64,000 nt of DNA from Eledone cirrhosa (GCA_964016885.1 OZ024745.1:12648001-12712000), one strand, 5' to 3'; positions 2,270 to 64,000 are shown, counted from the first letter of the stretch. Notes: a model not told the origin generated them from the letters alone. A program made the numbers and translations.

Positions 2270-5200
2270 AGACAATTTTTGTTTTCCTTTGTTGTTTTTA
2301 TGTCCTATCAACTAATCCGACCTCCAAAATGCTTGCAATTGACTATTATTTTAGCATATTAACAACAAATATGATTTCCACTGCAATTAAAAATGACTAG
2401 CTTTGTGAATGGTTTTTCCACCCACTTTCTGCCTTCATTTTTCTACAAAGCTAATCATTGACGATAGGTTTCAAAGTTATATTCATTCATAATATGTGAA
2501 AAAAATAGTCAACTGTGAGCATTGGTGTGATGAAAATGGTAGGAGTAGGTGTTCTGTAATAAATTTACCATATAGTGAAGTATGGGGTAGATTAATGTAC
2601 TGTGGTGTGCTTTGTTATAAGTGAGGATTTAAATTTCCACTTTGATCTATGTTATAAAAAAAATTTTTCATTCATTTTTGCATGCGTTATCAACTTCAAG
2701 AAGCTCGCAGTGAACTATGCTTTTAGCATATTAACAAAAAATATGACTTCCGCTGCAATAAAAAATGACTAGCTTTGTAAATGGTATTTCCACCCACATC
2801 CTCCCTCTTTTTTCTACAAAGCTAGTCATTTTCATCAGGTTTCCATGTCATAGCCATTGATAATATGTGCATAAAATAGTAATTTGCGAGCACCTTTTAT
2901 GTCAAATTGGGTGGAAAGCACAAAAAAAAAAAAAAAAAAAATGCCACATGAAAATTTGTCACACCTAAATCAATATCTTGGTGTGATGTAGTATGGTGTG
3001 GTTTGGTGAAGTTTCTACAGGTTTCCATGTCATATTTATTGATAAGTGGAAAAAAAAATCGTCAATTGGGAGCACCTTTAATGTCAGATTGGGTGGTAAG
3101 CACACACAAAAAAAAAAAAAGGAAATGGGAAGAAAATTTTTCACACCAAGATCAATAGCTTGGTGTGATGTAGTATGGTGTAACTTGGTATGGTGTGGTT
3201 TGTTTTGTTGAAGTTATGAAATGGAAACCAATTGTAAACGATAGATTCCCATGTCATATTCATTGATAATGTGTGGGAAAATAGTCATTTGCAAGCACCT
3301 TTGATGTTAGTTTGAGGTGGTAACCACAAAAAAAAAAAAAATGCAAGTAGCAAATTTGTCACAATGTCCAAGTGGTGTAAATGATAGGAGTATGTGTTCT
3401 GTAATAAATTACCATATAGTGAAGTATGGTTATGGTGTGGATTGAGGTAGATTAATGTGCTGTGGTGTGCTTTGTTATAAGTGAGGATTTAAATTTCCAC
3501 TTTGATTTATGTTAGAAAAAAAATTTTTCATTCATTTTTGCACGTGTTATCAACTTCCAAGAAGCTCGCAGTGAACTATGCTTTTAGCATATTAACAAAA
3601 AATATGACTTCCGCTGCAATAAAAAATGACTAGCTTTGTAAATGGTATTTCCACCCACATCCTCCCTCTTTTTTCTACAAAGCTAGTCATTTTCATCAGG
3701 TTTCCATGTCATAACCATTGATAATATGTGCATAAAATAGTAATTTGCGAGCATCTTTTATGTCAAATTGGGCGGTAAACACAAAAAAAAAAAAAAAAAA
3801 AAAAATGCCAGATGAAAATTTGTCACACCAAAATTAATATCTTGGTGTGATTTGGTGAAGTTTCTACAAAGATAGTCATTTTCGACAGGTTTCCATGTCA
3901 TATTTATTGATAAGTGGAAAAAAAAATAGTCAATTGGGAGGTAAGCACACACAAAAAAAAAAAAAGGAAATGGGAAGAAAATTTTTCACACCAAGATCAA
4001 TAGCTTGGTGTGATGTAGTATGGTGTAACTTGGTATGGTGTGGTTTGGTTTGGTGAAGTTATGAAATGGAAACCAATTGTAAACGATAGATTCCCATGTC
4101 ATATTCATTGATAATGTGTGGGAAAATAGTCATTTGCAAGCACCTTTGATGTTAGTTTGAGGTGGTAACCACAAAAAAAAAAAAAATGCAAGTAGCAAAT
4201 TTGTCACATTAATGTCCAAGTGATGTAAATGATAGGAGTATGTGTTCTGTAATAAATTACCATATAGTGAAGTATGGTTATGGTGTGGATTGAGGTAGAT
4301 TAATGTTCTGTGGTGTGCTTTGTTATAAGTGAGGATTTAAATTTCCACTTTGATTTATGTTATAAAAAAAATTTTTCATTCATTTTTGCACGTGTTATCA
4401 ACTTCCAAGAAGCTCGCAGTGAACTATGCTTTTAGCATATTAACAAAAAATATGACTTCCGCTGCAATAAAAAATGACTAGCTTTGTAAATGGTATTTCC
4501 ACCCACATCCTCCCTCTTTTTTCTACAAAGCTAGTCATTTTCATCAGGTTTCCATGTCATAGCCATTGATAATATGTGCATAAAATAGTAATTTGCGAGC
4601 ACCTTTTATGTCAAATTGGGTGGTAAGCACAAAAAAAAAAAAAAAAATGCCAGATGAAAATTTGTCACACCTAAATCAATATCTTGGTGTGATGTAGTAT
4701 GGTGTGGTTTGGTGAAGTTTCTACAGGTTTCCATGTCATATTTATTGATAAGTGGAAAAAAAAAATAGTCAATTGGGAGCACCTTTAATGTCAGATTGGG
4801 TGGTAAGCACACACAAAAAAAAAAAAAAGGAAATGGGAAGAAAATTTTTCACACCAAGATCAATATCTTGGTGTGATTTGGTGAAGTTTCTACAAAGATA
4901 GTCATTTTCGACAGGTTTCCATGTCATATTTATTGATAAGTGGAAAAAAAAATAGTCAATTGGGAGGTAAGCACACACAAAAAAAAAAAAAGGAAATGGT
5001 AAGAAAATTTTTCACACCAAGATCAATAGCTTGGTGTGATGTAGTATGGTGTAACTTGGTATGGTGTGGTTTGGTTTGGTGAAATTATGAAATGGAAACC
5101 AATTGTAAACGATAGATTCCCATGTCATATTCATTGATAATGTGTGGGAAAATAGTCATTTGCAAGCACCTTTGATGTTAGTTTGAGGTGGTAACCACAC

Positions 5201-7850
5201 AAAAAAAAAAAAATGCAAGTAGCAAATTTGTCACAATGTCCAAGTGGTGTAAATGATAGGAGTATGTGTTCTGTAATAAATTACCATATAGTGAAGTATG
5301 GTTATGGTGTGGATTGAGGTAGATTAATGTGCTGTGGTGTGCTTTGTTATAAGTGAGGATTTAAATTTCCACTTTGATTTATGTTAGAAAAAAAATTTTT
5401 CATTCATTTTTGCACGTGTTATCAACTTCCAAGAAGCTCGCAGTGAACTATGCTTTTAGCATATTAACAAAAAATATGACTTCCGCTGCAATAAAAAATG
5501 ACTAGCTTTGTAAATGGTATTTCCACCCACATCCTCCCTCTTTTTTCTACAAAGCTAGTCATTTTCATCAGTTTTCCCTGTCATAACCATTGATAATATG
5601 TGCATAAAATAGTAATTTGCGAGCATCTTTTATGCCAAATTGGGTGGTAAACACAAAAAAAAAAAAAAAAATGCCAGATGAAAATTTGTCACACCAAAAT
5701 CAATATCTTGGTGTGATTTGGTGAAGTTTCTACAAAGATAGTCATTTTCGACAGGTTTCCATGTCATATTTATTGATAAGTGGAAAAAAAATAGTCAATT
5801 GGGAGGTAAGCACACACAAAAAAAAAAAAAAGGAAATGGGAAGAAAATTTTTCACACCAAGATCAATAGCTTGGTGTGATGTAGTATGGTGTAACTTGGT
5901 ATGGTGTGGTTTGGTTTGGTGAAGTTATGAAATGGAAACCAATTGTAAACGATAGATTCCCATGTCATATTCATTGATAATGTGTGGGAAAATAGTCATT
6001 TGCAAGCACCTTTGATGTTAGTTTGAGGTGGTAACCACAAAAAAAAAAAAAAATGCAAGTAGCAAATTTATCACATTAATGTCCAAGTGATGTAAATGAT
6101 AGGAGTATGTGTTCTGTAATAAATTACCATATAGTGAAGTATGGTTATGGTGTGGATTGAGGTAGATTAATGTGCTGTGGTGTGCTTTGTTATAAGTGAG
6201 GATTTAAATTTCCACTTTGATTTATGTTAGAAAAAAAATTTTTCATTCATTTTTGCACGTGTTATCAACTTCCAAGAAGCTCGCAGTGAACTATGCTTTT
6301 AGCATATTAACAAAAAAATATGACTTCCGCTGCAATAAAAAATGACTAGCTTTGTAAATGGTATTTCCACCCACATCCTCCCTCTTTTTTCTACAAAGCT
6401 AGTCATTTTCATCAGGTTTCCATGTCATAGCCATTGATAATATGTGCATAAAATAGTAATTTGCGAGCACCTTTTATGTCAAATTGGGTGGTAAGCACAA
6501 AAAAAAAAAAAAAAAAATGCCAGATGAAAATTTGTCACACCTAAATCAATATCTTGGTGTGATGTAGTATGGTGTGGTTTGGTGAAGTTTCTACAGGTTT
6601 CCATGTCATAATTATTGATAAGTGGAAAAAAAAATAGTCAATTGGGAGCACCTTTAATGTCAGATTGGGTGGTAAGCACACACACAAAAAAAAAAAAGGA
6701 AACAGGAAAAAAATTTTTCACACCAAGATCAATAGCTTGGTGTGATGTAGTATGGTGTAACTTGGTATGGTGTGGTTTTGTTTTGTTGAAGTTATGAAAT
6801 GGAAACCAATTGTAAACGATAGATTCCCATGTCATATTCATTGATAATGTGTGGGAAAATAGTCATTTGCAAGCACCTTTGATGTTAGTTTGAGGTGGTA
6901 ACCACAAAAAAAAAAAAAAAATGCAAGTAGCAAATTTGTCACGTTAATGTCCAAGTGGTGTAAATGATAGGAGTATGTGTTCTGTAATAAATTACCATAT
7001 AGTGAAGTATGGTTATGGTGAAGTATATGGTGTGGATTGAGGTAGATTAATGTGCTTTGTTATAAGTGAGGATTTAATTTTCCACTTCTATTTATGTTAG
7101 AAAAAAAATTTTTCATTCATTTTTGCATGTGTTATCAACTTCCAAGAAGCCCGCAGTGGACTATGCTCTTAGCATATTAACAAAAAATATGACTTCCGCT
7201 GCAATAAAAAATGACTAGCTTTGTAAATGGTATTTCCACCCACATCCTCCCTCTTTTTTCTACAAAGCTAGTCATTTTCGACAGTTTTCCATGTCATAAT
7301 TATTGATAATATGTGCAAAAAATAGTCAATTGCAGCACCTTTGATTGTCAGATTGGGTGGTAAGAGCACACACAAAAGAAAAAAAAGAAACAGGAAGAAA
7401 ATTTTTCACACTGAGATCAAAAGCATGGTGTGGTGTAGAATGGTGCAGTTTGTTTTGGTGTGGTTTGGATTGTTATAGTTATGACATGGGAACCTATTGC
7501 AAATGATAGGTTTCCTTGTTATATACATTGATAATGTGTAAAAAAATAATCATTTGTGAGCACCTTTGATATCAGATTGGGTGGTAAGCACACACACACA
7601 GAAAAAAAAAAAAACAGGAAGAAAAATGTTCTCACTGAGATTAATAGCATGGTGTGATGTAGTATGGTGTAGTTTGTTATGGTGAGGTTTGGTGTAGTTT
7701 GGTTTGGTGTAGTTTGGTTTGGTGTAGTTTGGTGTAGTTATAACATGGAAGCCTATCATAAATTTACCAAGGTATGGTATAATCTGGTTTGGTGTAGTGT
7801 AGGTTAGTGTAGTGTGGTGTGTTATTGTGTTGCATTGCATCATATAGCGT
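2270..7850. repeat. Higher-order satellite: about six ~850-bp units built from diverged ~180-220-bp monomers
   Basis: tttctacaaagctagtcattttc recurs at ~2811, 3672, 4520, 5545, 6389 and 7257. The internal monomer ggtttccatgtcat...gcacctt..atgtcagattgggtggtaa-polyA recurs several times per unit. Confidence 0.92.
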
Positions 7851-7899
7851 GTTTCTCTTTAAATTAAAATCATTAAAATGTAATGCCTATCTTCTATAT

Positions 7900-10260
7900 C
7901 TTAAAGAGTGAGCTTAAATGTGATTGCAAATGACTTTTTTCTCTGGGTTCATGTTAGATTTAGGGTAAGTTTTACTGTTAATGGTAAGTTTATTGTTAGT
8001 GACTGTGTTACTGTTAGCATTACTGTCACTGTTTGCGTTACTGTCTGCGTTAGCATTTGCATAAGCGTCTATGTAAGCTTTTGTGTTAGTGTCTATGTAA
8101 ACTGGTGTTAGTGTTTGCATAAGTGTCAGCATTTGCGTCAGCGTCTGCACTGGTGATAGTGATTGTGTCAGCATTTCCCTTAGTGTCTAAGTCAACATTA
8201 GTGTTAGCATTAGTGTTTGTTTCAGTGCCTGCGTCTACGTCAGCTTCTGAGTCAGCATTATCATTAGCGTCCGCGTCAGCATCAGTGTGCACGTCAGTAT
8301 TTGCATTAGTGTTTGAGTCAGTGTTAGCATCAGCGTTTGCATTTGTGTAGGGGTTAGCATTTGTGTCAGCATCTGCATCAGCATTCACATTAGTCTTTGT
8401 CAGCATTTCCGTTAGCGTCTGTGTCAGTGTGTATATTAGCTTCTACGTCAGCGTTTTCGTCTGTGTCAGTATCAGTATTTACATCTACATCAGCGTCAGC
8501 GTTTCAGTTAACGTCAGTGTTTATGTTAGCGTCTGTGTCAGCGTTTACGTTAGAGTCTGTGCCAGCGTTTACGTTAGCTTCTACGTCAGCGTTTCCGTAA
8601 CGTGTACGTCAGCGTTTTCCGTTAGCATTAGCGTTTCCATTAACCTTTCCTGTGGCGTCCGCATCATTGCAGCGTCTGCATATCCCATGTAAGCGTTAAC
8701 TTCAACATTTGCGTCAGCCCTAGCGTCCGCATCAGCATTTGCGTTAGCGTCAGCATACACGTCAGCGCCGGCAATACTGCCTCAACATTTGCGTCAGCGT
8801 TAGCTTGGCTTTGGCTTCAGCAATCCGCATCAGCAATTGCGTTTTGGAGATCAGCTTCGGCGGTAAGGGTAAACGCTAACTTCTACGCCTGCTTCTACGT
8901 AACAACTACGTCAGCGTTTTGTTAGCTTCTACGTCAGCGTTTACGTTTGCTTCTACATCAGCATCTACGTTAGCTTCTACGTCAGTGTCTACGTTAACAT
9001 CTACGTCATCGTTTACGTTAGCTTCTATGTCAGCATCTACATTAGCTTCTACGTCAGCGCTTACATTAGTGTCTGTGTCAGCATTTGTGTTAGCTTTTAC
9101 GTCAGCGTCTGTGTCTGTATTTACATCTACATCAGCGTCAGTGTTTACGTTAGCGTCTGTGTCAGCGTTTACGTTAGAGTCTGTGCCAGCGTTTACGTTA
9201 GCTTCTACGTCAGCGTTTCCGTAACGTGTACGTCAGCGTTTTCCGTTAGCATTAGCGTTTCCATTAACCTTTCCTGTGGCGTCCGCATCATTGCAGCGTC
9301 TGCATATCCCATGTAAGCGTTAACTTCAGCATTTGCATCAGCGTTAGCGTTAGCCTTAGCCCTAGCGTCCGCATCAGCATTTGCGTTAGCGTCAGCATAC
9401 ACGTCAGCGCCTGGCAATACTGCCTCAACATTTGCGTCAGCGTTAGCTTGGCTTTGGCTTCAGCAATCCGCATCAGCAATTGCGTTTTGGAGATCAGCTT
9501 CGGCGGTAAGGGTAAACGCTAACTTCTACGCCTGCTTCTACGTAACAACTACGTCAGCGTTTTGTTAGCTTCTACGTCAGCGTTTACGTTTGCTTCTACA
9601 TCAGCATCTACGTCAGCTTCTACGTCAGTGTCTACGTCATCGTTTACGTTAGCTTCTATGTCAGCATCTACATTAGCTTCTATGTCAGCGCTTACATTAG
9701 TGTCTGTGTCAGCGTTTGTGTTAGCTTCTACGTCTATGTCAGTGTCTGTATTCACATCTACATCAGCGTTAGCGTTTATGTTAGCATCTGTTTCAGCGTT
9801 TATATTAGCTCTGCGTCAGTTTTTACGTTAGCATCTGTGTTAACGTGTGTTAGTGTCTGTGTCAGCGTCAGCGTCTGCGTCAGCATTTTCATTAGTGTTT
9901 CCTTTAGCTTCTACGTCAATGTTTACGCCTGCATTAAGGTTCACATTAGCATCGCTGTCATCGTTTTCGTTTGCTTTAACATCTGGATCAACATTTGCGT
10001 CTGTTTGCATTAGTGTCTGCATTTGCTTTTTTTATATCAGTGTCAGCGTTAGAGTCTGGGTAGCATTTACATCAGCGTGTACGTCAGAGTCTTTGTCAGC
10101 ATTCGCCTTTGCACCTGCATTAGTATTCACGTTAGTGTTTGTGTCAGCGTAAGCGATTGTGTCAACATTTGCACTAGCGTTTGTGCCAGCATAGCCATCT
10201 TCGTCAGTGTCAGCGTTGGCGTTGGCGTTGGCGTTAGTGTTTGATTTTGTATTAGTGTTA
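7900..10260. repeat. Degenerate hexamer-period satellite (GTCAGC/GTTAGC/TCTACG); Asp/Ala/Asn/Thr-rich reading on the minus strand
   Basis: Continuous gcgtca/gcgtta/gtgtta variants, with an internal ~650-bp near-exact duplication (~8520-9180 vs ~9140-9800). Confidence 0.85.
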
Positions 10261-12150
10261 GCATTTTTGTTAGTGTTAGTGTTCAGGTTAATGTTGACTT
10301 AGTTTTCAGGTTAGGGCTCGTGTTACTTTTAATGTTAGTGCTCAGGTTAGTGGTTTATGGTAGTGTTAGTTTTAGTGTTCAGGTTAATGTTCGTGTTAAT
10401 GTCAGTGCTCAGGTTAGTGTTAGTGTTTACTGTAGTGTTAGTTTTAGTGTTGAGGTTAATGTTAGCTTAGTTTTCTGGTTAGTGTTAGTGTTAGTGTTAG
10501 TTTTTATGGTAGTGTTAGTGTTACTGTTAGTGCTCAGATCAGTGTTAGTGTTTGTGTTACTGTTTATGGTAGTGTTAGTTTAAGTGTTAATGTTAGTTTT
10601 AGTGTTAAGGTTAGTGTTTGTTTTTGTGTTAATAATTTTGTTAGTATCTCTGTTAGCATTAGTGATTGATGTTTCCATTAGTGTTAGTGATTGTGTTAGC
10701 GTTAGTCTTTGTTTTTGTGTTAATGTTAGCATTAGTATTTCTGTTAGTGTTAGCATGAGTGTTTGTGTTAGTTTTCAGGTTAGTGTTAGTGTTCAAGTTA
10801 GTGTTAGAGATTGTGTTAGTGTTAGTATTTGTTTTTGTGTTAGTATCTATGTTAGCATTAGTATTTCTGTTAGTGTTAGCATTAGTGTTTATGTTAGTGT
10901 TCAAGTTAATGTTAGTGTGAGAGATTGCGTTAGTGTTTGTTTTTGTGTCAATATTTGTGTTAGTATCTCTGTTAGCGTTAGTGTTTATTTTAGTGTTGAA
11001 GTTAATGTTAGCTTAGTTTTCTGGTTAGTATCAGTTTTCAGATTAGTGTTTGTGTTAGTGTTACTTTTAGTGTTAGTGCTCAGGTTAGTGTTTGTGGTAG
11101 TGTTAGTTTTAGTGTAAGTGTTCAGGTTAGTGTTAGTGTTCAAGTTAGTGTTAGAGATTGTGTTAGTGTTAGTATTTGTTTTTGTGTTAGTATCTATGTT
11201 AGCATTAGTATTTCTGTTAGTGTTAGCATTAGTGTTTATGTTAGTGTTCAAGTTAATGTTAGTGTGAGAGATTGCGTTAGTGTTTGTTTTTGTGTTAATA
11301 TTTGTGTTAGTATCTCTGTTAGCGTTAGTGTTTATTTTAGTGTTGAAGTTAATGTTAGCTTAGTTTTCTGGTTAGTATCAGTTTTCAGATTAGTGTTTGT
11401 GTTAGTGTTACTTTTAGTGTTAGTGCTCAGGTTAGTGTTTGTGGTAGTGTTAGTTTTAGTGTAAGTGTTCAGGTTAGTGTTAGTGTTCAAGTTAATGTTA
11501 GTTTTAGTGTTAAGGTTAATGTTAGTTTTAGTGTTAAGGTTAGTGTTAGAGATTGTGTTAGTGTTAGTATTTGTTTTTGTGTTAATATTTGTGTTAGCAT
11601 CTCTGTTAGCATTAGTGTTTGATGTTTCCATTAGTGTTAGTGATTGTGTTAGCGTTAGTCTTTGTTTTTGTGTTAAGGTTAGCGTTAATGTTAGCATTAG
11701 TATTTCTGTTAGTGTTAGCATTAGTATTTCTGTTAGTGTTAGCATTAGTATTTCTGTTAGTGTTAGCATTAGTGTTTATGTTAGTGTTCAAGTTAATGTT
11801 AGTTTTAGTGTTGAGGTTAGTGTTAGAGATTGCGTTAGTGTTTGTTTTTGTGTTAATATTTGTGTTAGTGTTGAAGTTAATGTTAGCTTAGTTTTCTGGT
11901 TAGTATCAGTTTTCAGATTAGTGTTTGTGTTAGTGTTACTTTTAGTGTTAGTGCTCAGGTCAGTGTTAGTGTTTATGGTAGTGTTAGTTTTAGTGCTAGT
12001 GTTCGTGCTAATGTTAGTTTTAGTGTAAGTGTTCAGGTTAGTGTTAGTGTTTACGGTAGTGTTAGTTTTAGTGCTGCTGTTCAGGTTAGTGTTCGTGTCA
12101 GTTTTAGTGTTAGTGTTCAGGTTAGTGTTTGTGTTAGTTTTCATGTTAGC
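10260..12150. repeat. (GTTAGT)n-based degenerate satellite with a ~350-bp internal duplication
   Basis: gtgttagtgttag runs; block ~10780-11130 is repeated at ~11130-11480. Confidence 0.9.
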
Positions 12151-12439
12151 ACTAAGTTCACTGTTAGAGCATGTGTGAGTGCAAGTGTTATTTTTAAAGT
12201 TCGGTTTTAGCTTAAAGTTAGGTTTTCTACTTTCCAGGAAAAAAGTTGATCCTCTCTAACTTGAGTGGTGTGATATAGTGTGGTAAAGTATAGTGTTTCG
12301 TAGTGTGGTGTTGGATAATGTGGTATGGTTATAATGTTTGTCAGTGTGGTGTGGTATGGTATAGGTTGATGTAGTGTGGCTTAGTTTGATTATAATAATT
12401 CAAATAATAATAACAATAATAATAGTAATAATAATTGTT

Positions 12440-13415
12440 CTTGTTCATTTTCTTTGTCTTCTTCTGTGCCTTTGACTGCTTCTGTGCCTTTGACTGCTTC
12501 TGTGCCTTTGACTGCTTCTGTGCCTTTGACTTCTTCTGTGCCTTTGACTTCTTCTGTGCCATCTAAATACCAAAAACAAAGAATGTAAAACATATATGTT
12601 GCCTATCTCTCAGACTTTACAAAGTGGTGAGGAGATAAAGTTAATTTAAAGAGCAGTGTGCTCCTGCACTGTGATCCTATAATGTAGCTTATAAGCTATT
12701 TCATAACTAAAAAACAATGTCAAACATCAACAAAAGTATATACAAATATCTTTGAATGTTTAAGTTAAACCTAAATAGATCGTATCTAAAGGTCATTAAG
12801 TTAAGACTGAACTAAGATCATATCTATAAATCATTAGGTTTAGACTGAACTGAGATCATACTTCTTTTCGTCATCTTCGTTTCCCGTGTCTTCTTTGTCT
12901 TTGTTGTCATTTTCATTTTCATTTTAGTCATCTGCTTCGTCGTCTTTTTCTTCTTTTCCATCTAAATATAAAAAAAAATTGTAAACAAATATATAGCTGA
13001 TCTCTCAGACTTTCACGAAACACCGAGGAGATAGAGTTAATATAACGAGTGGGGAGCTCATATATATATATATATATATGGTATAGCATGGTGTTATGTG
13101 GTCTGGTGTGGTACAACATGGTGTGATGTGGTGTGGTATGATATGGTGAGGCGGGGGAGGGGGACAACGTTAGATTAATGTTAACAATACACATGTAGCA
13201 TCCACATGTGATGAGAAGGGGGAAACAGTGTTTAACTAATTTTAACATTACATGTAGCATCCATCTACAGGTGGTTAAGTTAAGACTGAGGTGTAATCAT
13301 ATGAAAAGGTCAATTTAAAACTACACAGATTCTGCTTAAAATGATGGTCAATGAAGTGTTTACTTACTCAGATCCTTTGAAATAACTTTCTTTCTCTTAC
13401 TGTAACTGGACATAC
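12440..13415 (-). pseudogene. Putative decayed multi-exon gene fragment: 48-nt basic micro-exon plus acidic exons starting with DG
   Basis: Micro-exon 13415-13368 (tttcgtag|GTATG...CTGA|gtaagt; GMSSYSKRKKVISKDL). Exon 12961-12862 (tttag|ATGG...|gtatga; acidic, in-frame TAA). Exon from 12562 (DGTEEVKGTEEVK...). Splice-like signals are conserved in the right arm. Confidence 0.4.
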
Positions 13416-13439
13416 CTACGAAATAGAAAACAGTCGAAT

Positions 13440-13750
13440 AGAGAGTGGTGTGGTGTGGTGTGGTGTAGTGTAGTGTGGTGTGCGGTTTAGTGTAGTGGAC
13501 AGTGGTGTGGTGTAGTGTAGTGGAGTGTGGTTTAGTGTAGTCGACAGTGGTGTGGTGTAGTGTGGTTCAATGTAGGGTGGGGATATGGTGTAGTGGAGTG
13601 TGGTGGGATGTAGTGTGGTAGCATGTGGTGTGTTGGCATGTGATGTGATGTGGCGTGGCGTGGTGAAATGTGATGTGATGTGGTGAAATGTGGCATGGTG
13701 TGGTGAAATGAGACGAGACGAGATGTGATGTGGTGTGATGTGATGTGAAA
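13440..13750. repeat. (GTGGT/GTAGT/GTGAT)n pentamer satellite
   Basis: Visible pentamer periodicity; a similar tract lies at 14825-15040. Confidence 0.9.
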
Positions 13751-13764
13751 TTTTGTCCTCCTAT

Positions 13765-14805
13765 TTTTCATGTGCTATCAACTAATCCAATCTCCAAGAT
13801 GCTTGAAACCAACTTTCTCCCCCCAGGAAAACGGCGGGGTGAGGTGGTTCCCCCTTCACCCGGATAACCCCTGCTTACTCGGAATTTTCTCTTTGATTCT
13901 ATTTTCATGCGTTATCAGTGAATATGACTTCCAAACCAGTCAAAAACAACTAGCTTTGGAGAAAGAGGAGAGGGAGAGGGGAAGAGTTTTGCAGATCTAC
14001 ACCCCACTCACATGTTGTGGGACTTAATCATTTTCGGTATATTTCCTGTGCTATTAATTTCCTGTGCTATTTCCTATGCTATTTCCTATGCTATTTCCTA
14101 TGCTATTTCCTATGCTATTTCCTGTGCTATTAATTAATCTGACCTCCTAGATGCTTCCAATCAACTTATTTCCCTGGGTTAGGTTTAGGGTCGGGTAATG
14201 TTTAGGGTTTAGTTTTAGGGTTGGGGTAAAGTTTAGGGTTTAGCTTTAGGTTTGGGGTAAAGTTTAGGGTTTAGCTTTAGGTTTGGGGTAAAGTTTAGGG
14301 TTTAGTTTTAGGGTTGGGGTAAAGTTTAGGGTTTAGCTTTAGGTTTGGGGTAAAGTTTAGGGTTTAGTTTTAGGGTTGGGGTAATGTTTAGGGTTTAGTT
14401 TTATGGTTGGGGTAATGTTTAGGGTTTAGATTTAGCTTGGTTTGGTTTAGATTTAGGGTTGGGGCTAGATTTAATTTTATGTTTAATTTAGTTTCCAAAT
14501 CCCAGAAAAAAAAAATTGATTCAGAGCAACTAAAAGGTCAGATTAGTTGATAGCACTGAAAAGGAGACCGAAGAAAAATCATTAGGGTATATATCTACAA
14601 AACGACAATGGCTTTTCCACCTGCTTTACCCCTCCTTTTTCCTAGAACAACTAATCATTTCCAACTGGTTTGGAGGTCATATTCGTTGATAACATGAGAA
14701 AACTCTGGGGTTAAATGAGAGAAGTGCATCCACCTAAGTTTTCCATGAAGAGAGAGTCAATAACAAACATCTTGGAGTTCGGATTAGTTGATAACACATG
14801 AAAAA
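13765..14805. mobile_element. Foldback-like element: nested inverted arms around a 31-bp telomere-like array
   Basis: catgtgctatcaactaatccaatctccaagatg (13769) is inverted at ~14769-14800. An inner pair lies at 14125-14168 and 14512-14555. The centre, 14177-14465, is (tttagggttggggtaaagtttagggtttagc) x ~8. Confidence 0.65.
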
Positions 14806-15262
14806 AAGATGAGGAAAAAATTTTGGGTGTTATGTGGTGTGTGTGGAGTGGTGTGTTGTGGTGTGTTTTTATGTGGAGTGGAGTAGTGTGGTGTGTTGTG
14901 GTGTGTTTTTATGTGGAGTGGAGTAGTGTGGTGTAGTGTTGTATTATTTTTATGGGGTGTGGTGTGATGTGGTGCGGTGCACTGTGGTGTTGTGCAGTGT
15001 GGTGTTGTGCAGTGCGGTGTTGTGCAGTGCGGTGCAGTGAGGTTCTTCATCTTTATCTTCATCTTTGTATTCATCTTTGTATTCATCTTCTTTGTTTTGT
15101 CTTCCATCTAAACAAACAAAAATATATATATAAAACATATGTAGCCAATCTCTCAGACTTTTACAACTTTGTCTGATTTACTCGTTTTATTTACAATCCA
15201 TTAAAATTATAATGGTATTAGAATGAAATAGTATGGTAGAATATTAAGTGTTAAGTGTTAAT

Positions 15263-15301
15263 TGAACAAGTAATTTCATGCTTTCGCAATCTTCAGGTTC
15301 A
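15263..15301 (-). ncRNA. Minimal hammerhead ribozyme, inverted copy with stem III mutated
   Basis: tgaac CTGAAGA ttgc-gaaa-gcat GAAA ttac TT gttca. Confidence 0.5.
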
Positions 15302-15607
15302 TATTCTGTGGTGACAGTCAAGTTTACAATTTTCAACTGTAATGAGATGGGTAAATTTTGTGCCTTATATACAGTGAAAAGCGGCTACATGTGTAGTTTC
15401 ACTGGATTACTGAAGCTGATTGGTTTAGGCATCACGGTTGGTTGGGCATGTCTAACGACTTCTATTTAGCATCTATTCAAAGCATCAATTGTTTTGCTAT
15501 TTTTAGAAATGATGAAAATAGCATTTTCTAGGGTTTTATACCCCTAAGAATTATTATTGTTCATTTAGTTTGGGTTGGAATTTTGAAAAATATTCCCAAA
15601 TGCAAAT

Positions 15608-15898
15608 ATGAACTGCAAAAGCAGAAATCTAATTTACTGCATTAAATGCCCGAATTGTGAAGAACTATATGTCGGTCAAACTGGAAATGCACTATCGGAA
15701 CGTGCACGGGTGCACCGACAGCAAATCAGAGACCCAAATGTCCGTCAGATACCCCTGAGTAACCATCTAGCAGCATGTGGTCAGAAAATATTTATATTTC
15801 CATTCTACAAATTACACAGGCCAAGTGAAATCAAGAGAAAAATCACAGAAAAGAATTTTATTGATAAATTCCAACCCAAGCTAAATGAACAATTATAA
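15608..15898 (+). pseudogene. GIY-YIG endonuclease C-terminal fragment of a Penelope-like element
   Basis: MNCKSRNLIYCIKCPNCEELYVGQTGNALSERARVHRQQI...HLAAC...EKNFIDKFQPKLN has the LIY...CxxC...YVGQT signature. Confidence 0.9.
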
Positions 15899-16185
15899 TT
15901 CTTAGGGGTATAAAAACCCTAGAAAATGCTATTTACATCATTTCTAAAAATAGCAAAACAATTGATGCTTTGGATAGAGCCAAATAGAAGTCGTTAGACA
16001 TGCTCAACCAACCATGACGCCTAAACCAATCAGCTTCAGTAATCCAGTGAAACTACACACCAATTGGTCGAAATATAGTTTGCAAAATATAGCATTCTGT
16101 AGCCGCTTTTCTCTGTATATAAGGCACAAAATTTACCCATCTCATTACAGTTGAAAATTGCAAACTTGACTGTCACCACAGAATA

Positions 16186-16224
16186 TGAACCTGAAGATTG
16201 CGAAAGCATGAAAGTACTTGTTCA
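16186..16224 (+). ncRNA. Minimal type I hammerhead ribozyme in a Penelope pLTR
   Basis: tgaac CTGAAGA t-tgc-gaaa-gca-t GAAA gtac T T gttca. Stem I is tgaac/gttca; stem III is palindromic. Confidence 0.7.
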
Positions 16225-16269
16225 ATTAACACTTAACACTTAATATTCTAACATACTATTCAGATTACA

Positions 16270-16645
16270 TCTATATATATATACACATGCATATATATAT
16301 ACATACATACATACACATATACATATATACAAATACATATATACATGCATATATATATATATACATATACAATATGTATAGGATTCCTTTCCCTTTGAGC
16401 ACATAATTTACAGGGAATAACGCGACTCTATGGCTCCGTTAATTTATCTTCATATATACATATATATACATACACACACACATATATATACATACACACA
16501 TATGCATACACACACATGCATACACACATATATACATACACACACATATACATACACACACATATACATACACACATATATACATACACACACATATATA
16601 TAGATTCATACATACATACACACACACATATATATATATATGTAT
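16270..16645. repeat. Compound (AT)n/(AC)n/(ATAC)n microsatellite
   Basis: Direct inspection. Confidence 0.9.
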
Positions 16646-17309
16646 AAAGTACTTGACGATGAGCATTCTAGTTGTTCAATAAACTGATTGAATAATACAA
16701 ACGATGTTTTAATATACAGATTCATTATTTGCGTATATATAATATATTTACAGTAGAATAACAGCAAATATGTTTTAAATATATACATAAATAATTACCA
16801 ATGCTTAAAAAACATTATAAATTGCTCGCGATTCTTTCAGAAGGATATATTCCTTTAATGTTGCAATATTAAAGAAAATATACGTCTATATATACATACA
16901 TATATTTATTCAACTAAGGAAAGTTGGTTGATTGAAAATTTGCCGACTCTTTCATAAGTTTAATATCAACAGTTTATGTTTATCCGGAGTTTTATTATAA
17001 TAATTGTTTCTACTTTGGCACAAGGCCAGCAATTACCCAGTGTATTACTGCTACTTTATTTTATCGACCCCATAAGGATGAAAGGCAAAGTTAACCTCGG
17101 TGGGTTATAATAATAAACAAGAAAGACGGTATCATTTGCCCATTTCATTTGTATAACATCTGCCCTACGTGTTCTCATATCAATGGATATCAACGAATAT
17201 CTCATATCAACGGATATTTACATCTTGCATGGATTTTTTGTCGGAAGAAAACACGTAAGGCAGATATTATACAAATGACATATGTCTTCGAAATAAGTAT
17301 AATAAAATA

Positions 17310-17352
<43 letters not shown>

Positions 17353-17471
17353 AGGTGAGTTTTATTGTAGTACAATAAAGAGCAATGCAGATATCGGATA
17401 AGTACCACTCTACAGTTTGTAGGACTGGAGTATAAATAATAAGATCAAAAGATGGTTAAAAGAGTTCCATG

Positions 17472-17539
17472 TATTTTATTATGCGCATTTCAAAAACAAA
17501 TATCATGCGATGACATTTGCGTTTTCGTCAGATAAAATA
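17472..17539 (-). ncRNA. Type I hammerhead ribozyme
   Basis: tattttat CTGACGA [long stem II] GAAA tgcgca TA ataaaata on the minus strand. Confidence 0.8.
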
Positions 17540-18280
17540 GGGAGACATGATATGAAGGTTAAAAAACACTTGTGAATAGTGCAGTTTTAAATCAACTTAT
17601 GAAAAGTAATTCAAGATTGATATGTGATATTGGGAAAAAAATGAGGGTGGGTGGGTGGGGTGGAAAGGATGAAAAAGAGGAGGAGATGAGAGTAAAGAAT
17701 GGAGGGGGAGGAGTATAATAAGGAAGGATGAGATAGGAGGAGAGATGGGTGATAGAAAGAGAGAGATAGCCTTTATAACTGAGAAAAATATATTGTTTTA
17801 CAGAGAGAGGTTAAAAAGCCGTTGGAAGATAATATATAAATTAAAAGAATTTGAAAATTAATGAAAAGAAAAAAATTAAGAATAATGTTAAATTAAGGTT
17901 TGTATATTGAAGAGTTTAATAATATGTGCGATGAAAAGAAATTGTTAATATATATTAAGAATAATGTTAAATTAAGGTTTGTATATTGAAGGGTTTAATA
18001 ATGTGTTAAACCTTAATTTAACATTATTCTTAATATATATTAACAATTTCTTTTCATCGCACATATTATTAAACCCTTCAATATACAAACCTTAATTTAA
18101 CATTATTCTTAATTTTTTCTTTTCATTAATTTTCAAATTCTTTTAATTTATATATTATCTTCCAACGGCTTTTTAACCTCTCTCTCTCTGTAAAACAATA
18201 TATTTTTCTCAGTTATAAAAGCTATCTCTCTCTCTCTATCACCCATCTCTCCTATCTCATCCTTCCTTATTATACTCCTC

Positions 18281-20251: not shown

Positions 20252-20290
<39 letters not shown>

Positions 20291-21239: not shown

Positions 21240-21297
<58 letters not shown>

Positions 21298-55899: not shown

Positions 55900-56150
55900 A
55901 TTTTTGTAACACACAACACCACACCAACTGTATCACATGACATCACATGAACTGTACCACACTACATACACCAATTATACCACACCACACAGAAGAAGAC
56001 CACACCACACCAACTGTACCACATGAAACTACACTACAGTATATTATACCACTCTACATAACACTGCCTCACACTACAGTACACTACACCGCACTACAAT
56101 ACACTGCACCACCCTACACTACACTACACCATACCACTGTCCACTCTACT
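55900..56150. repeat. (ACCAC/ACTAC)n pentamer satellite, inner edge of the right inverted arm
   Basis: Reverse-complement counterpart of 13440-13750. Confidence 0.8.
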
Positions 56151-56172
56151 ACTGCTGTTTTCTATTTTGCAG

Positions 56173-58505
56173 GTATGTCCAATTACAGTAAAAGAAAGAA
56201 AGTTATTTCAATGGATCTGAGTAAGTAAACACTTCATTGACCATCATTTTAAGGCATGATCACAGTGTAGTTTTAAATTGACCTCTTGATATCATTACAC
56301 CTTAGACCTCTATATATGATTACACTTCAGTCTTAAATTAATGACCTCAATTCAGTTTTACATTAATGACCTATAGATATAATTTCAGTTCAGTCTTAAA
56401 TTAATGACATATAGATATGTTCTCAGTGCAGTTTTAAACTAATGACATATAGATGTGGCTACACCTGTCTTATATTAGTGACTTATAGATAAGATTACAC
56501 CTCTGACTTAACTTAGTGACCTATAGATATTACACCTCTCTCTTAACTTAATGACCTGTAGATGGATGCTACATGTAATGTTAAAATTAGTTGATCACTG
56601 TCTCCCCCCCTCCTCAACACATGTGGTTGCTACATGTTTATTGTTAATATTAATGTAATGATGTCTTCCCCCCCACCACTACAACATCATGCCACACCAC
56701 ATCAAACCATACTGTACCTCACCAGACCACTCACCACATGACACCATACTATACCAGAGTCCGAGAGATCAGCTATATATATATTTGTTTACATTTTTTT
56801 TTATATTTAGATGGAAGAGAAGAAAAAGACCACAACAAAATCAAAGACAACAAAAACAAAGAAGGCAAGAAAAATGAAGAAAACAATGAAACGAAGAAGT
56901 CAAAGACAATGTAGACGGTGATGACGACGAAAGTATGATTTCAGTTCAATCTTAACCTAATGATTTATAGATAAGATCTTAGTTCAGTCTTAACTGACTA
57001 CTCATATGAGCCGGGGACCTTCAGCTTGCTTACATAGATTTCAGCACTTTACAGTGTGTACTGGGTACATTTTATCGTGTTGCCACTGCCAGGGAGGTTG
57101 TCATGTACTTGACACAACTAAAGAGTCCTGCCAACCATGCCAAACAAAGAGTAGGGAGGACACTTCAGTTGTGTCATAGACATGACAACATTCCTAGTGC
57201 TAGTATCACATTAAAATGTTGCCAGTACACTTAGTAAAGCACTGGGATGTCTGATCATCATTGTCATCATATCATGTCCACCTACCATGCTAATATCAGT
57301 CAGATGAGTTATCATGGCCCATGATAACTTGCATATGTGTTCCATGTTTAGCATGGTTTCAATAGCTGGATGCCCTTCCTAATACCCTCGCAGAGTGTAC
57401 AAGGTGCAATTTATCATGATACCAGTACTACCAACTTACAAAAATGTACAGGATGCATTTTATTGTGACACGTGCACAAGAGAGTTTGTCCTCTCTACAT
57501 CATATTGTCTTTATTTCATTGCCAACCACTTTACAGAATGTATTAGGTGCAGTTTATCATGGCACCAGCACAAGAGATGTCGAATATCTGGCCAAACTGA
57601 AGAGTTTTCTCTGCACCATATAGTTTCCATTCAATTACCAACCACTTTACATAGGGTATTTTATCATGGTACCATCAACCACTTTACAGAGTGTACTGGG
57701 TGTGTTTTACATCACTATGTGGTAGTGTCTTAGGCAAGTGTCCTCTAGTGTAAACCCTAGATAACGAATGCCTTGTTGAGTGTTGTGAAGTTAGAAAGTG
57801 ATGGGATGTTGTGAGGCTGTGTTGTGGGGTTGCATTGTGAGGTTACATTGGGAGGTTGTGTTGTGAGGTTGCATTGTAAGGTTGTGTTATGATGTAGCAT
57901 TACGAGACTGTGTTGTGATTTGATAGATATCTGAGCAATGAAAATTACCTTTGGCCCCCAACTGTATTTTAGACAGTGTCACCTTAGCTGAGCAGTGGAA
58001 ACACACACATATGGCTTTCAGCAGTATGTTAGTCATTGTCACCTTAGCTGAGCAATGAAAACACACATCCGTCCCTCAACAGTCAGTTAGTCACTTTCAA
58101 CTAAAACTCATAGATGCGAGACTCCAGCATGGTCACAGTGCATTGTCTGATATCAGTAAAAGACGAGCATTGTAACTATAAATACATTATGACTGTTTTT
58201 ATTCATGTTAACAGTGAATTTAACATTCAAAGATATTTGTGTATATTTTGTTGATGTTTGACATTGCTTTTTTAGTTATGAAATAGCTTATAAACTACTT
58301 TATAGGATTACAGCATGAGCACACTGCTCTTTAAATTAACTTTATCTCCTCAGCACTTCGTAAAATCCAAGAAATAGGCAACATATATGTTTTACATTCT
58401 TTGTTATTGGTGTTTAGATGGAAGAGAAGACAAAGGCACAGAAGAAGACAAAAGTACAGAAGAAGAGAAAGGCACAGAAGAAGATAATGAAGATGAACAA
58501 AGACA
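56173..58505 (+). pseudogene. Right-arm copy of the putative multi-exon gene fragment
   Basis: Micro-exon 56173-56220 (ttttgcag|GTATG...CTGA|gtaagt; GMSNYSKRKKVISMDL); acidic exon 56811-56932; exon from 58418 (DGREDKGTEEDKSTEEEKGTEED). Confidence 0.4.
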
Positions 58506-58739
58506 ATTATTACTACTATTGTTATTGTTATTATTATTTGTATTATTATAATCAAACTATGCTACACCACCCCACGCTATACCACACCATCCTACACCAC
58601 AGCACACTAGTATAAACATTATACTATACCACACTATATGAGACCACACCACACTATGAAACAATATATGACACCACACCACACTATGAAACACTCTACT
58701 ATACCACACTATAACACACCACTTTAACCTGAATTCTAA

Positions 58740-60700
58740 CACTAGAAGTAAACACTAACACTAATGGTAAACACTAACACTAACCTGATAACTAACACTA
58801 ACCTGAATACTAACCCGAACACTATCACTAAAACTAACATTAATCCTAACATTAAGCTGAACACTAACACTAAAACTAACATTAACCAGAAAACTAAGCT
58901 AACATTAACCTGAACACTAACACAAACACTAACGCTAACACAAACAGAAATACTAACACAAACACTAACACTAAAATTAACACAAAAACAAACACTAATA
59001 CTAACACTAACCTTAACCTGAACACTAACACTAAAACTAACATTAACACTGACATTAATCTGAATACTAACACTAAAAGTAAACACTAACACTAAAAGTA
59101 AACACTAACACTAAAAGTAACACTAACACTAACTAGAAAACTAACACTAACCAGAACGCTAACACTAACACTAACACTAACACAAAAACTAACACTACCA
59201 TAAACACTAACACAAACACTAACACTAACCTGAGCACTAATAGAAAAAAGTAACACTAACATTAGCCTGAACAGTAATACTAAAACTAACACTAACCTGA
59301 AAACTAACACTAACCATAAAACTAAGTTAACATTAACCTGAACACTATCACAAACACTAACGCTAACATTAACAGAATTATTAGCACAAGCACTAACACA
59401 GAAACACTAATACTAACACAATCACTAACACTAACACTAAAACTAACATTAATACTAACATTAACCTGAAATCTAATACTAAAGGTAAACACTAACACTA
59501 ACCTGAACACTAACACTAAAACTAACATTAACCCTAACATTAACCTGAATGCTAACACTAACTAGAAAACTAACACTAACACTAAAACTATCATAAACAC
59601 TAACACAGACACTAACACTAACCTGAGCACTAATACAAAAAGTAACACTAACATTAACCTGAACAGTAATACTAAAACTAACACTAACCTGAAAACTAAC
59701 ACTAACCAGAAAACTAAGCTAACATTAACCTGAACACTATCACAAACACGAACGATAACATTAACAGAAATACTAACACAAACACTAACACAGAAACACT
59801 AATACTAACACAATCACTAAATCTAACATTAACCCTAACATTTACCTGAACACTAACACGAACTAGAAAACTAACCCTAACCCTAACCTGAGCACTAATA
59901 CAAAAAGAAACACTAACATTAACCTGAACAGTAATACAAAAACTAACACTAACCAGAAAAGTAAGCTAACATTAACCTGAACACTATAAAACACTAACGC
60001 TAACATTAACAGAAATACTAACACAAACACTAACACAAAAACTAACATTAACACTAAAACTAATATTAACACTAACATTAACCTGAAATCTAACACTAAA
60101 AGTAACATGAACACTAACCTGAAAACTAACACTAACACTAAAACTAACACTACCATAACACTAACACTAATCTGAGCACTAATACAAAATGTAACACTAA
60201 CATTAACCTGAACAGTAATACTAAAACTAACACTAACCTGAAAACTAACACTAACCAGAAAACTAAGTTAACATTAACCTGAACACTATCACAAACACTA
60301 ACGCTAACATTAACAGAATTATTATCACAAACACTAACACAGAAACACTAATACTAACACAATCACTAACACTAACACTAACATTAACACTAACTTTAAC
60401 CTAAACACTAACACTAACATGAACACTAACCAGAAGACTAAGCTAACATTAACCTGAACACTAATGCTAACATTAACACCAAATAAAAAAGACTAACACA
60501 ATCACTAACACTAATGGAAATACTAACACTAACACAAACACTAATACAAAATCAAACACTAATGGAAACACTAACACTGACCTTAACACTAACACTCATA
60601 ATAACCTGAACACTAACGCAAACACTAAAACAAACACTCACTAAAACAAACACTCACTAAAACAAACACCCAATAACACAAAGACAAACACTAAAACCCT
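58740..60700. repeat. (ACTAAC)n-based satellite, inverted counterpart of 10260-12150
   Basis: Shared diagnostic motifs such as aaccagaaaactaagctaacattaacc; ctaaccctaaccctaacc at ~59870. Confidence 0.9.
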
Positions 60701-62090
60701 CTAACACTAACAGAGAGCTCAATGCTGATACTGACGCAGATGCCTACGCTGACGCAAACGATTATGCTAACGCAAACGCTGACACAATTGCTAACACAAA
60801 TGCTGACACAAATGCTAATGTGAATATTGACGCAGGCCCAAACGCGAATGCTGACGTAGACGCTGACACAGACGTTAATGCAAACACGAACGCTGACACT
60901 AACACAAATGCTGACGAAGATGCTAACACAAATACTAACACTGATGCAGACTCTAAAACTGACGCAGAGGGTAACGCAAACGCTGACACAGACGCTAACA
61001 CGAACCCTAATGCTGACATTAACACAAATACTAATGCTGACACAGACGCTAATGCAAAAGCTAACGCTGCCACAAATGCAGATACAAACACAAATGCTGA
61101 CGTAGACGAGAACGCAGATGATGACAGCGATACTAACACGATCCCTTACGCAGACGTAAACTTTGACGCAGATGCTATAGGAAACGCTGACGCAAATGCT
61201 GATGCTATCGCAAAAGCTTATGCAGACGCTAAGGCAGACGCTAACGCAGACGCTGATAGCACCACCAGCGTTTACCCCGACGCCGAAGCCGATATGCAAC
61301 GCAATGCCGATGCGGACGCAAATGCAAACACAAATGCTAACGCTAACGCTGATGCATATGCTGAGACAGAGAGACATAACCGCCGACACTGATGTAAACA
61401 CTGATGCTAAGGCAAATGCTGACGCGGGCATGCCGCCAACGTTTACGCTGACGCAAATTTGCTGAGGCAAAGGCAAACGCTGATGTTGTTTAGGCTTCCC
61501 AGACGCGGACGCCAACGGAAAGGTTGACGGAACCGCTGAGCTAATGCAGACGCTGACGCACATGCTAACGCAAAAGCCAACGCTAACGCTGATGCAAATG
61601 CTGAGGCAGACGTATATGCTGATGCAAACGCTGACACAGTCGCTAAAGGGAAAGGTTGTTGCAAACGCTAACGCTGACACTAACGAAGACACTGATTCAA
61701 ACGTTAACGCAGACACTGATACAAACACTAATGCTGACACTAACGAAGACACTGACGCAAACACTAACGCAGATACTAACGCAAACACTAACGCGGATAC
61801 TGATAGAGACACTGACGCTAAGGCAAACGCTGATGCAATCGCTATCACAGACGCAAACGCTGACGTAGATGCTGACACTGACGCAAACGCTAAGGCTAAT
61901 GCAAACATTAACGCAGATGCTAACACAAACTCTATATAAACACTAGCTTACATAGACGCTTATGCAAATGCTAACATTGACGCAAAGAGTGGCGCTAACA
62001 ATAACACTAACAGTAACACAGTCATTAACAATAAACTTACCATTAACTGTAAAACTTACCTTAACACTAACCCTAAATCTAACATTAATC
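60700..62090. repeat. Hexamer-period satellite, inverted counterpart of 7900-10260
   Basis: gctgac/gctaac/gcagac variants; unique spacers are shared, e.g. aacaataaacttaccattaac vs ttaatggtaagtttattgtt. Confidence 0.88.
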
Positions 62091-62099
62091 CAGCTATAG

Positions 62100-64000
62100 A
62101 AGATAGGCATTATATTTTAAAGATTTTAAGTTAGAGAGAATCACGCTATACCATACAACACAATAACACAACACACCACACTAACCTACACAACACCAAA
62201 CCAGATGATACCATATCCTGGTAAATTTACGATAGGTTTCCATGTCATAACTTCACCAAACAAAAACCTCACCATACCAAACTACACCAAACCAAACCCC
62301 ACCATACCAAACAACACCATACTACATTACACCATGCTATTGATCTCAGTGTGAAAAATTTTCTTCCTGTTTTTTTTTTGTGTGTGTGCTTATCACCCGA
62401 TTTGACATGAAAGGTGCTCACAATTGACTATTTTTTTGCAAATTACCCCAAACTACCCCAAACCACAAGATACCAAACCACACCATACCAAACTACACCA
62501 TACAACATCATACTGTGGTAAATTTATTCAAGAACACCTACTCCTTGATCTCAGTATGAAACATTTTCTTTCGTTTATTTATTTATTTTTTTTTTTTTTG
62601 TGTGGTTACCACCCAATCTGACATCAAAGGTGCTCGCAAATGACTATTTTTTGCACATATTATCAATGAATATGACATAGAAACTTGTCAAAAATGACTA
62701 GCTTTGTAGAAAAAAGAGGGTGGAAGTGGGTGGAAATACCATTTACAAAGCTAGTCATTTTTGATTGCAGTTGAAGTCATATTTGTTGTTTAGTCAACTG
62801 CAAGCATCTTGGCAGTTGGATTGGTTAATAGCACATGGAAAAAACAGAGGAAAAATTTGTTTCTGATTTAAATCAAAGTGGAAATTAAAGTCCTTACTTT
62901 ATAGGGAAACACATTATAACAAAGCAGACCACACCACATTAAACTACCCCACACCATACCAAACTACATCATACTACATCACACCATGGTAAATTTATTG
63001 CAGATCACCTACTCCTACCATTCCCATCACACAATGGTATTTACATCAATGTGACAAATTTTCTTCCCTCTTTTTTTTTCCCTTTTTTTTTTGTGTGTGA
63101 TTACCACCCAATCTGACATCAAAGATGATGGCAATTGACTATTTTCTCACACATTATCAATGAATATGTCATGAAAACCTATCGTTTACTATTGGTTTCC
63201 ATGTCATAACTTCACCAAACCAAACCACACCATACCAAACTACACCAAACCATACCAAACTACACCAAGCCAAACCACAGAATACCAAACTACTACATCT
63301 CACCATACTATTGATCTGTGTGAAAAATTTTCTTCCTGTTTTTTTTTTTGTGTGCTTACCACCCAATTTGACATCAGAGGTGCTCACAATTGACTATTTT
63401 ATGCACATATCAATGAATTTGACATGGAAACTTGTCAAAAATGACTAGCTTTGTAGAAAAAAGAGGGTGGAAGTGGGTGGAAATACCATTTACAAAGCTA
63501 GTCATTTTTGATTGCAGTTGAAGTCATATCTGTTGTTTAGTCAACTGCAAGCATCTTGGCAGTTGGATTGGTTAATAGCACATGGAAAAAAACAGAAGAA
63601 AAATGTTTTTCTGACTTGATTCAAAGTGGTAATTAAAGTCCTTACTTTATAGGGAAACACATTATAATAAAGCAGACCACACCACATTAAACTATCCCAA
63701 ACTTTACCATACTACATCATATCATGGTAAATTTATTGGAGAACACCTACTCCTACCATTTACATCATACCATGGTCTTGACATAATTTTTTTTGTGTGG
63801 TTACCACCCAATCTGACATCAAAGGTGCTTGCAATTGACTATTTTCTCACACATTATCAATGAATATGTCATGAAAACCTATCGTTTACGATTGGTTTCC
63901 ATGTCATAACTTCACCAAACCAAACCACACCATACTAAACTACACCAAACCCAAACTATAACAAACTACACCAAGCCAAACCACAGAATACCAAACTACA
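62100..64000. repeat. Higher-order satellite (~750-bp unit), inverted counterpart of 2270-7850; runs off the window
   Basis: aaaaatgactagctttgtagaaaaaagaggg at ~62690 and ~63437; monomer ttaccacccaatctgacatcaaaggtgct. Confidence 0.9.

Follow-up and report, generated by a model that had tools for sequence, protein, structure and literature searches.

The 64,000-nucleotide stretch of the Eledone cirrhosa genome analysed here (the window) contains two long mirror-image arms, with C2H2 zinc-finger (ZNF) sequences between them. It is probable, in our judgement, that the arms are separately placed copies of one composite block: the left copy lies inside a 30.2-kb Merlin transposon with 27-bp TIRs and an 8-bp TSD, the right copy belongs to an older subtype that lacks such ends, and 37.7 kb of the window locus, a ZNF exon included, is also present in a sister Merlin on another chromosome, likely through template-switch gap repair. 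The mirror, though real, is incidental: a subtype-A block carried by a giant Merlin stands opposite a resident subtype-B block, and the pair was later duplicated.

A first-pass annotation had described an ordered series of satellites and exon-like modules that recurs in reverse-complement order, and both the colinear inverted matches (self-BLAST) and the matching order of the arrays (TRF) bear this out. The arms, at 2,278-13,700 and 55,900-64,385, show inverted homology at mostly about 70-76% identity, with colinear matches of 2,282-8,454 to 61,550-63,950 (70-79%), 9,920-12,763 to 58,219-61,024 (70%), and 12,799-13,652 to 55,934-56,995 (76-83%). Both carry one ordered series of arrays: a 12/24-bp GC-rich hexamer, a 6/12-bp AT-rich hexamer, and a pentamer. 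The three pairs of unique spacers that the annotation had matched between the arms align as well: 7790-8120 with 61930-62230 (74%, E 6e-57), 12560-12780 with 58200-58420 (91%, E 5e-80), and 13160-13440 with 56150-56680 (75-90%, E 1e-55). The mirror arms thus stand as described, except that the right one is 8.5 kb long and contains about 1.2 kb (57.0-58.2 kb) missing from the left. The left arm is present at the 2.3-13.8 kb first given for it, but its block runs on to about 15,170, the extension consisting of a fourth exon-like module, a pentamer array, a hairpin unit and a 31-bp repeat. Once the neighbouring stretch of the contig is added, the end of the right arm falls at about 64,385, the counterpart of the left-arm homology end at 2,278. 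The outer ends are unlike (a LINE fragment adjoins the left arm and (TA)n the right), the arms belong to different subtypes and have no common outer TIR or TSD, and a transposon encloses the left one only. The ZNF region (26.2-31.2 kb) is a small share of the 42 kb of inter-arm DNA, the remainder being mostly LINE, Ty3/gypsy and SINE-like.

The left arm is a subtype-A composite cargo block (2278..15170, minus strand) of exon-like modules, pentamer and hexamer arrays and a higher-order repeat, and is 87-98% identical to dispersed copies over the full spacer (BLAST, TRF). The higher-order repeat (2278..7760, minus strand; period 840-1,872 by TRF) arose by amplification of a hairpin-rich unit of about 330 bp. 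The hexamer arrays (8000..12150, minus strand) grade from GC-rich (GCTGAC/GCTAAC) into AT-rich (ACTAAC); their CpG o/e values are 1.26 and 0.46, respectively, their main differences fall at CpG positions, and the two probably represent a single repeat at different degrees of CpG loss. The exon-like modules (12430..13413, minus strand) comprise a 48-nt AG...GT exon and two acidic GAA-rich modules. These modules could be read to mean that the arms are relics of head-to-head host-gene paralogues, with small acidic exons and satellite-filled introns, one of which was captured by Merlin, an origin that we consider possible but rather unlikely. The modules do have canonical splice signals, and the 48-nt exon is open in most copies where it was recovered, but in most subtype-A copies a stop comes early in the module after it, the other modules are without donors, the hexamer ORF has no Pfam match, and no intact source gene was present at the diverged loci read. 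The splice-flanked modules of the block no longer give a long frame. This reading concerns the origin of the cargo alone and is compatible with separately placed copies of one block. Arms made of coding exons were rejected (the hexamer frames are broken and lack a Pfam match).

The element around the left arm is a non-autonomous giant Merlin of 30,209 bp (G000:C5:12,640,740-12,670,948, minus strand), recognised by its TIRs and exact TSD. It spans -7,260 to 22,948, such that its in-window part is 1..22948 and its other TIR lies 7,260 bases past the window's left edge. Dispersed subtype-A copies share homology well past the arm, from 22,948 to -7,260, and both limits are GG-starting, 27-bp perfect inverted repeats. 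The left TIR (22922..22948, minus strand) consists of 27 perfect bp (GGCACTAC...), followed by a repeat that is 80% alike to about 105 bp; the TSD is an exact 8 bp (AGTTTCTT), and its copy at 22949..22956 (minus strand) is also kept inside the sister element at C3:260.6 Mb. The available part of PMC8101967 characterises Merlin (IS1016/IS1595-related) by GG-terminal TIRs of 24-462 bp, an 8/9-bp TSD and a DDE_Tnp_IS1595 transposase, and the 27-bp perfect/~105-bp imperfect TIRs lie within that range. No transposase remnant was found in the window Merlin by tblastn. Nested inside it are a MITE-like long inverted repeat (15227..16260) and an inverted-repeat element (17431..19946, plus strand) with a hAT dimerisation-domain ORF fragment (18,641-19,405). 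As mobilisers of the giant element, hAT was rejected (the 18.6-19.4 kb ORF belongs to a separate inverted repeat nested in the Merlin, and ends of Merlin type bound the giant element), and so was MULE (the giant element's TIR within 1.5 kb of the match at 0 of 12 PF10551 loci).

Genome-wide, exact end patterns were found for 102 right and 75 left ends, and reversed controls gave 0. Places are known for 100 of the 102 right ends, and 19 left ends were added to the 75; 40 of the resulting 94 left ends are faced by a right end within 130 kb, at a median of 29.9 kb. The 31 end pairings, at 29 loci, include 17 with an exact 8-bp TSD, one with an exact 9-bp TSD, two with one mismatch and 11 with none; an exact TSD is present at 18 of the 29 loci, and verified sizes are 17.1-50.5 kb. 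Among mismatched end pairs serving as a control, 1 of 926 has an exact TSD, and that one is a retained donor TSD. Elements of 57-113 kb were represented by four candidate pairs, the largest, all of which failed the TSD test. A correctly oriented Merlin end lies within 60 kb at 47 of 54 subtype-A loci and a wrongly oriented one at none of the 54, while at 0 of 11 subtype-B/C loci was a Merlin end found within that distance in either orientation.

The genome contains at least 150 matches to PF12762 (DDE_Tnp_IS1595). At several of these loci a frame of 301-303 aa is open about 430 bp inside TIRs of the window Merlin's type, and the matches in sister copies that share this TIR and the cargo score over the cut-off (E 7e-19, 2e-19). 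The open translations contain candidate D, D and E residues of a putative triad, placed by motif blocks. Of five such loci extended by 40-50 kb, three have arm-A cargo upstream of the transposase ORF and none is a fully intact autonomous giant; within about 45 kb, an intact left TIR was present in 0 of the 3 transposase-plus-cargo copies. From these sequences we infer that the giant units are cut and pasted in trans by the 301-303-aa transposase of sister copies.

A one-off inverted duplication, for which exactly two copies would be expected, is at odds with the 1,283 candidates that the left spacer and the 668 that the right spacer found in the genome at first look. The best 40 candidates were scored from each list, so that the lists favour close relatives. 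Among the copies scored, those of subtype A are 87-98% identical over the full spacer and occur in both orientations on several large contigs. Right-type (B) copies group apart from them, at about 72% to A, and types of greater divergence are also present. The merged lists hold 65 loci (38 plus, 27 minus). Within 100 kb, 12 of these have a neighbour on the same strand and 8 have one on the opposite strand. These 8 are the arms of four tandem copies of the window locus with its neighbourhood, repeated at a 172-215 kb period and about 99% identity. Direct inspection outside the 65 revealed an older paralogue of the entire mirror-plus-ZNF layout at C3:335.6 Mb, as well as a rearranged, ZNF-free opposed pair at C1:421.2 Mb, which A-type Merlin pieces adjoin; at C4:84.0 Mb a paralogue has the ZNF and arm A only. 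The mirror-plus-ZNF layout hence recurs only as duplications of the window locus (four tandem copies and one older paralogue).

The right arm (55900..64000, plus strand, ending at about 64,385) is a subtype-B copy of the composite block with no Merlin end of its own: the 172-kb unit contains none beyond those of the left element, and none belonging to subtype-B/C copies was found at five solo loci (three B, two more diverged). A common mechanism for subtypes B and C was rejected, as four ends at three loci have a common 3' terminus before (TA)n and 5' ends that disagree. In subtype A this terminus is lost to a LINE junction, which suggests that subtype A may derive from the older B/C family.

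Among the origins that the annotation had offered for the mirror, the correct one is a composite element in two copies of opposite orientation, the copies being dispersed, on both strands and of differing subtypes. It had also proposed a single foldback-type unit, with the arms as its long inverted ends, that could move or invert the enclosed ZNF genes, and had named randomly oriented dispersed copies without ZNF association as evidence to the contrary; the copies are indeed dispersed in both orientations, and the pairs are not independent. We regard this proposal as very improbable. The arms are colinear mirror images, and an arm pair with a ZNF is found five times (four on C5, one at C3:335.6 Mb), but flanks beyond the arms are common to all five pairs, which marks them as duplications of one locus. 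Moreover, the arms are only about 72% alike, while relatives at 85-98% exist elsewhere for either of them; the left arm lies within another element, one bounded by a TSD; the outer ends differ; and the five solo subtype-B/C loci have no ZNF within 40-80 kb. The outer termini and TSD that paired arms were expected to share are likewise absent, the left arm being internal to the Merlin and the right one without those ends.

The ZNF sequences of the window consist of a C2H2 zinc-finger ORF of 227 aa with 6 fingers (30495..31178, minus strand), from which decayed fingers continue to 29.8 kb, and a second, decayed C2H2 finger array (26160..26552, minus strand). Both arrays are outside the Merlin, 3-8 kb past its left end. 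They belong to a host flank (22949..34140; SINE/LINE pieces, the ZNF exon and the 5' part of a LINE) that has been copied into the Merlin at C3:260.643-260.684 Mb. This sister element (C3:260,642,967-260,684,456) is 41.5 kb long, with its own TSD (GAAAATAG) and unrelated flanks. It matches the window from -7,260 to 34,140 and then continues through an ATAT/(TA)n junction into a second left end. Its 37.7-kb interior is about 99% identical to the window locus and its ends are foreign; the interior retains the donor left TIR, the donor TSD copy and 11.2 kb of flank with the C2H2-ZNF exon, and the presence of that TIR and TSD copy reveals the direction of transfer. The ZNF frame is longer in the sister (339 aa and 10 fingers, versus 227 aa and 6), and the ZNF segment is 100% identical to the window's over 551 bp, the sole 100% match outside C5 among 40 scored. 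The annotation's idea that ZNF DNA had been moved is accordingly upheld in one case, via the Merlin ends that bracket the left arm and not via the two arms.

Divergence between the sister and the window is 1.8-3.8% in the right 3.5 kb, 0-1.6% from about -3,600 to 34,140, and 2.4% at the outer left end: the ends differ by 2-4%, the interior by about 0.6%, and the step falls between -3,790 and -3,580. The right part is 1.9-4.5% from every copy compared, equally far from all, which indicates that the foreign end is C3's. A donor interior of 37.7 kb enclosed by two foreign ends agrees better with template-switch repair of a resident element, the gap-filling model of PMC8277862, than with plain end-bypass, and the sequence comparison makes capture of the interior by template-switch gap repair likely. 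The breakpoint joins ATAT to a (TA)n tract, and because these sequences are of low complexity the microhomology is weak. Composite or end-bypass transposition, in which a second Merlin end past the ZNF exon was used together with a right end, or a template-switch chimera jumping once (FoSTeST), could also have produced the sister, and we give this a smaller though appreciable chance. It would account for the perfect TSD and for the inner left TIR kept with the donor TSD; nested inner and outer ends are recurrent in the family (for example, C4:113.2 and C4:219.4), with the TSD at the outer end; and the transfer is interchromosomal, whereas the single-copy gap-filling cases in the available part of PMC8277862 are mostly in cis. 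Simple end-bypass, however, expects the donor's own right end, and the right 3.5 kb are foreign; the window has no Merlin end at 34,140; and only one such ZNF-bearing copy exists among 40 scored. The chimera may have formed first and then jumped once, the TSD being mute on whether the interior was swapped before or after insertion.

That the mirror layout or the C3 copy is an assembly artefact seems highly implausible: the region is satellite-rich and within 99%-identical tandem copies, yet the arms have diverged by 25-30%, the layout is repeated in an older paralogue, and substitutions, finger number and TSD are all particular to the C3 copy. Both the left TIR/flank junction of the window and the outer junction at C3 are crossed by contigs of reads, which reach only 25-28 letters into the TIR (below a bar of 31 letters). 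The reads of those contigs possibly come from the assembly's own sample.

We hypothesize the following history. An old block, with subtypes 25-30% apart, would have become dispersed through the genome as it is found today, and one copy of it, together with LINE debris, would have been taken up between Merlin ends. The resulting units, now 17-50 kb long at many sites and each with its own TSD, would have spread by cut-and-paste through a sister-encoded transposase. One of them may have inserted at about 8 kb from a ZNF gene and facing a subtype-B block that was already in place, forming the mirror by chance, and the neighbourhood would then have been copied into the present four tandem copies of 172-215 kb and two older paralogues. 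The interior at C3:260.6 Mb, which crosses the donor left TIR and TSD into 11.2 kb of flank, would have resulted when a broken resident Merlin was repaired from the window locus. Copying would have begun through homology some 3.5 kb in from the right end and stopped in a (TA)n tract, 0.7 kb short of the resident element's own left end.

The family resembles known Merlins in its GG TIRs of the expected range, 8/9-bp TSDs, DDE_Tnp_IS1595 transposase and internal tandem repeats, and differs in size: the TSD-verified copies are 17-50 kb, while Merlin repeat coordinates in the available part of the PMC8101967 table, where element lengths are absent, reach at most 13,661 (zebrafish Merlin-2_DR). Octopus Merlin proteins appear in the supplement of that paper. 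The cargo here consists of satellites, LINE debris, nested TEs and, once, a ZNF exon. A transposase of about 300 residues has apparently moved 17-50-kb units, well above the Merlin sizes given in that table part, and satellites and LINE debris have thereby spread as a package. The C3 element has the features of a Pack-TIR (host sequence between TIRs, a TSD and an identifiable parental copy) and resembles the animal Pack-TIR, gap-filling and FoSTeST cases in the available part of PMC8277862 in its host sequence within a TIR element, single copy, breakpoint microhomology and donor in place; unlike those, its tract is 37.7 kb long and interchromosomal, starts by long sister homology and crosses the donor TIR. 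Merlin is not named in the main text of PMC8277862. Ising TE/foldback composite units of Drosophila, as far as the available part of PMC6431247 describes them, also carry large host segments between transposon ends, whereas the mobile ends here are short Merlin TIRs and not the mirror arms. The coleoid C2H2-ZNF expansion similarly involves clustered recent ZNF duplicates in TE-rich DNA, but the available parts of PMC12513265 and PMC12988792 treat timing and TE silencing, not DNA-transposon carriage of ZNF exons. No published ZNF capture by Merlin, and no published giant Merlin, was found in a search whose scope excluded most subscription papers and the text of Repbase.

The C3 copy represents a dated-in-sequence case in which a DNA transposon gained an entire open ZNF coding exon whose donor is on a different chromosome; the donor, the breakpoints and the old TSD can all still be read. 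Since all copies share kilobases of homology, sister-templated repair would be possible for any of them, and giant Merlins might on this basis serve as genome-wide landing pads: a broken copy is repaired from a sister, copies tens of kilobases of the sister's neighbourhood and jumps again, seeding C2H2-ZNF genes on new chromosomes as one engine of the lineage's ZNF expansion. We offer this as a speculation that is more probably wrong than right by a wide margin. The C3 case makes the loose link between TEs and cephalopod-type ZNF expansion countable, as the share of ZNF genes that lie between Merlin ends. Fourteen cargo-bearing Merlin loci (the window, C5:19.3, C7:23.8, C1:326.1, C3:260.6, C2:233.6, C4:261.9, C1:140.4, C1:343.0, C3:105.5, C1:135.7, C3:15.9, C3:18.2 and C1:206.2) were scanned for fingers, and one has a ZNF inside the element; several of the 14 were covered in part (C1:135.7 less 20 kb), and the interiors of C2:386.0 and C2:309.6 lay outside the scan. 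At one in 14, a ZNF-moving role is a single instance and no rule. Two further candidates for Merlin-borne ZNF copies were rejected: C4:84.0 Mb has no left TIR (90 kb were covered, the right end lying beyond), and C3:335.6 Mb has no left TIR and a shared flank past its right end. The window ZNF has at least 33 further paralogues at 90-91% among 40 scored, many of them in tandem arrays. On present evidence the share of ZNF genes between Merlin ends looks small, with tandem duplication doing most of the copying. Three other ZNF genes lie 2-18 kb outside the left end of the C3:260.6 Mb element.

Several copies of the giant Merlin DNA transposon family, which has 27-bp GG-ended TIRs and an 8- or 9-bp TSD, have a doubled right end, in which a second TIR lies 650-1,100 bp outward of the first; this arrangement was found at L147 (C4:113.2 Mb), L154 (C4:219.4 Mb) and L157 (C3:42.0 Mb). 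Because a TSD is found on the outer end at two loci with doubled right ends, and the inner right end is followed by the same flank at four loci, the data suggest that Merlin elements grow through the addition of new ends. The cargo block (the composite repeat of the left arm) or its higher-order repeat is amplified inside some Merlin copies, either as tandem copies of 6.8-8.5 kb or as arrays of more than 20 kb, at C1:140.415-140.436 Mb, C1:326.127-326.136 Mb and C4:84.068-84.094 Mb. In the left arm of the window, a hairpin unit with inverted ends of ~60 bp (13,745-14,830) contains a 31-bp telomere-like repeat (14,179-14,435).

By raw counts, about 70 of the 100 right ends listed are on the four largest contigs, C1-C4, which constitute ~54% of the assembly. 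Merlin is also contained in large tandem duplications. A unit of 172-215 kb that contains the window (position -9,206, beyond the left edge, onward) is present in four tandem copies of ~99% identity at C5:12.47-13.1 Mb, and every one of the four carries Merlin, the ZNF and arm B, the right-hand copy of the composite block. Four similar repeats of 133-174 kb each are found on C211, where the left flank of Merlin is the same as that at C5:19.33 Mb.

Paralogues (90-91%) of the window's ZNF exon (30,495-31,178, minus strand) occur once per 100-200 kb in long arrays at C20:3.5-5.3 Mb and C27:13.1-15.3 Mb and on C16 and C28. The window also holds several young copies of a LINE whose reverse-transcriptase (RT) domain is directly followed by a PHD finger (Pfam PF00628), with RT frames at 39,807-41,918 and 42,863-44,752, and an uninterrupted Ty3/gypsy pol frame of 975 aa (49,112-52,039; RT, RNase H and integrase domains); a direct repeat of 100 bp lies at 49,100 and again at 52,504.
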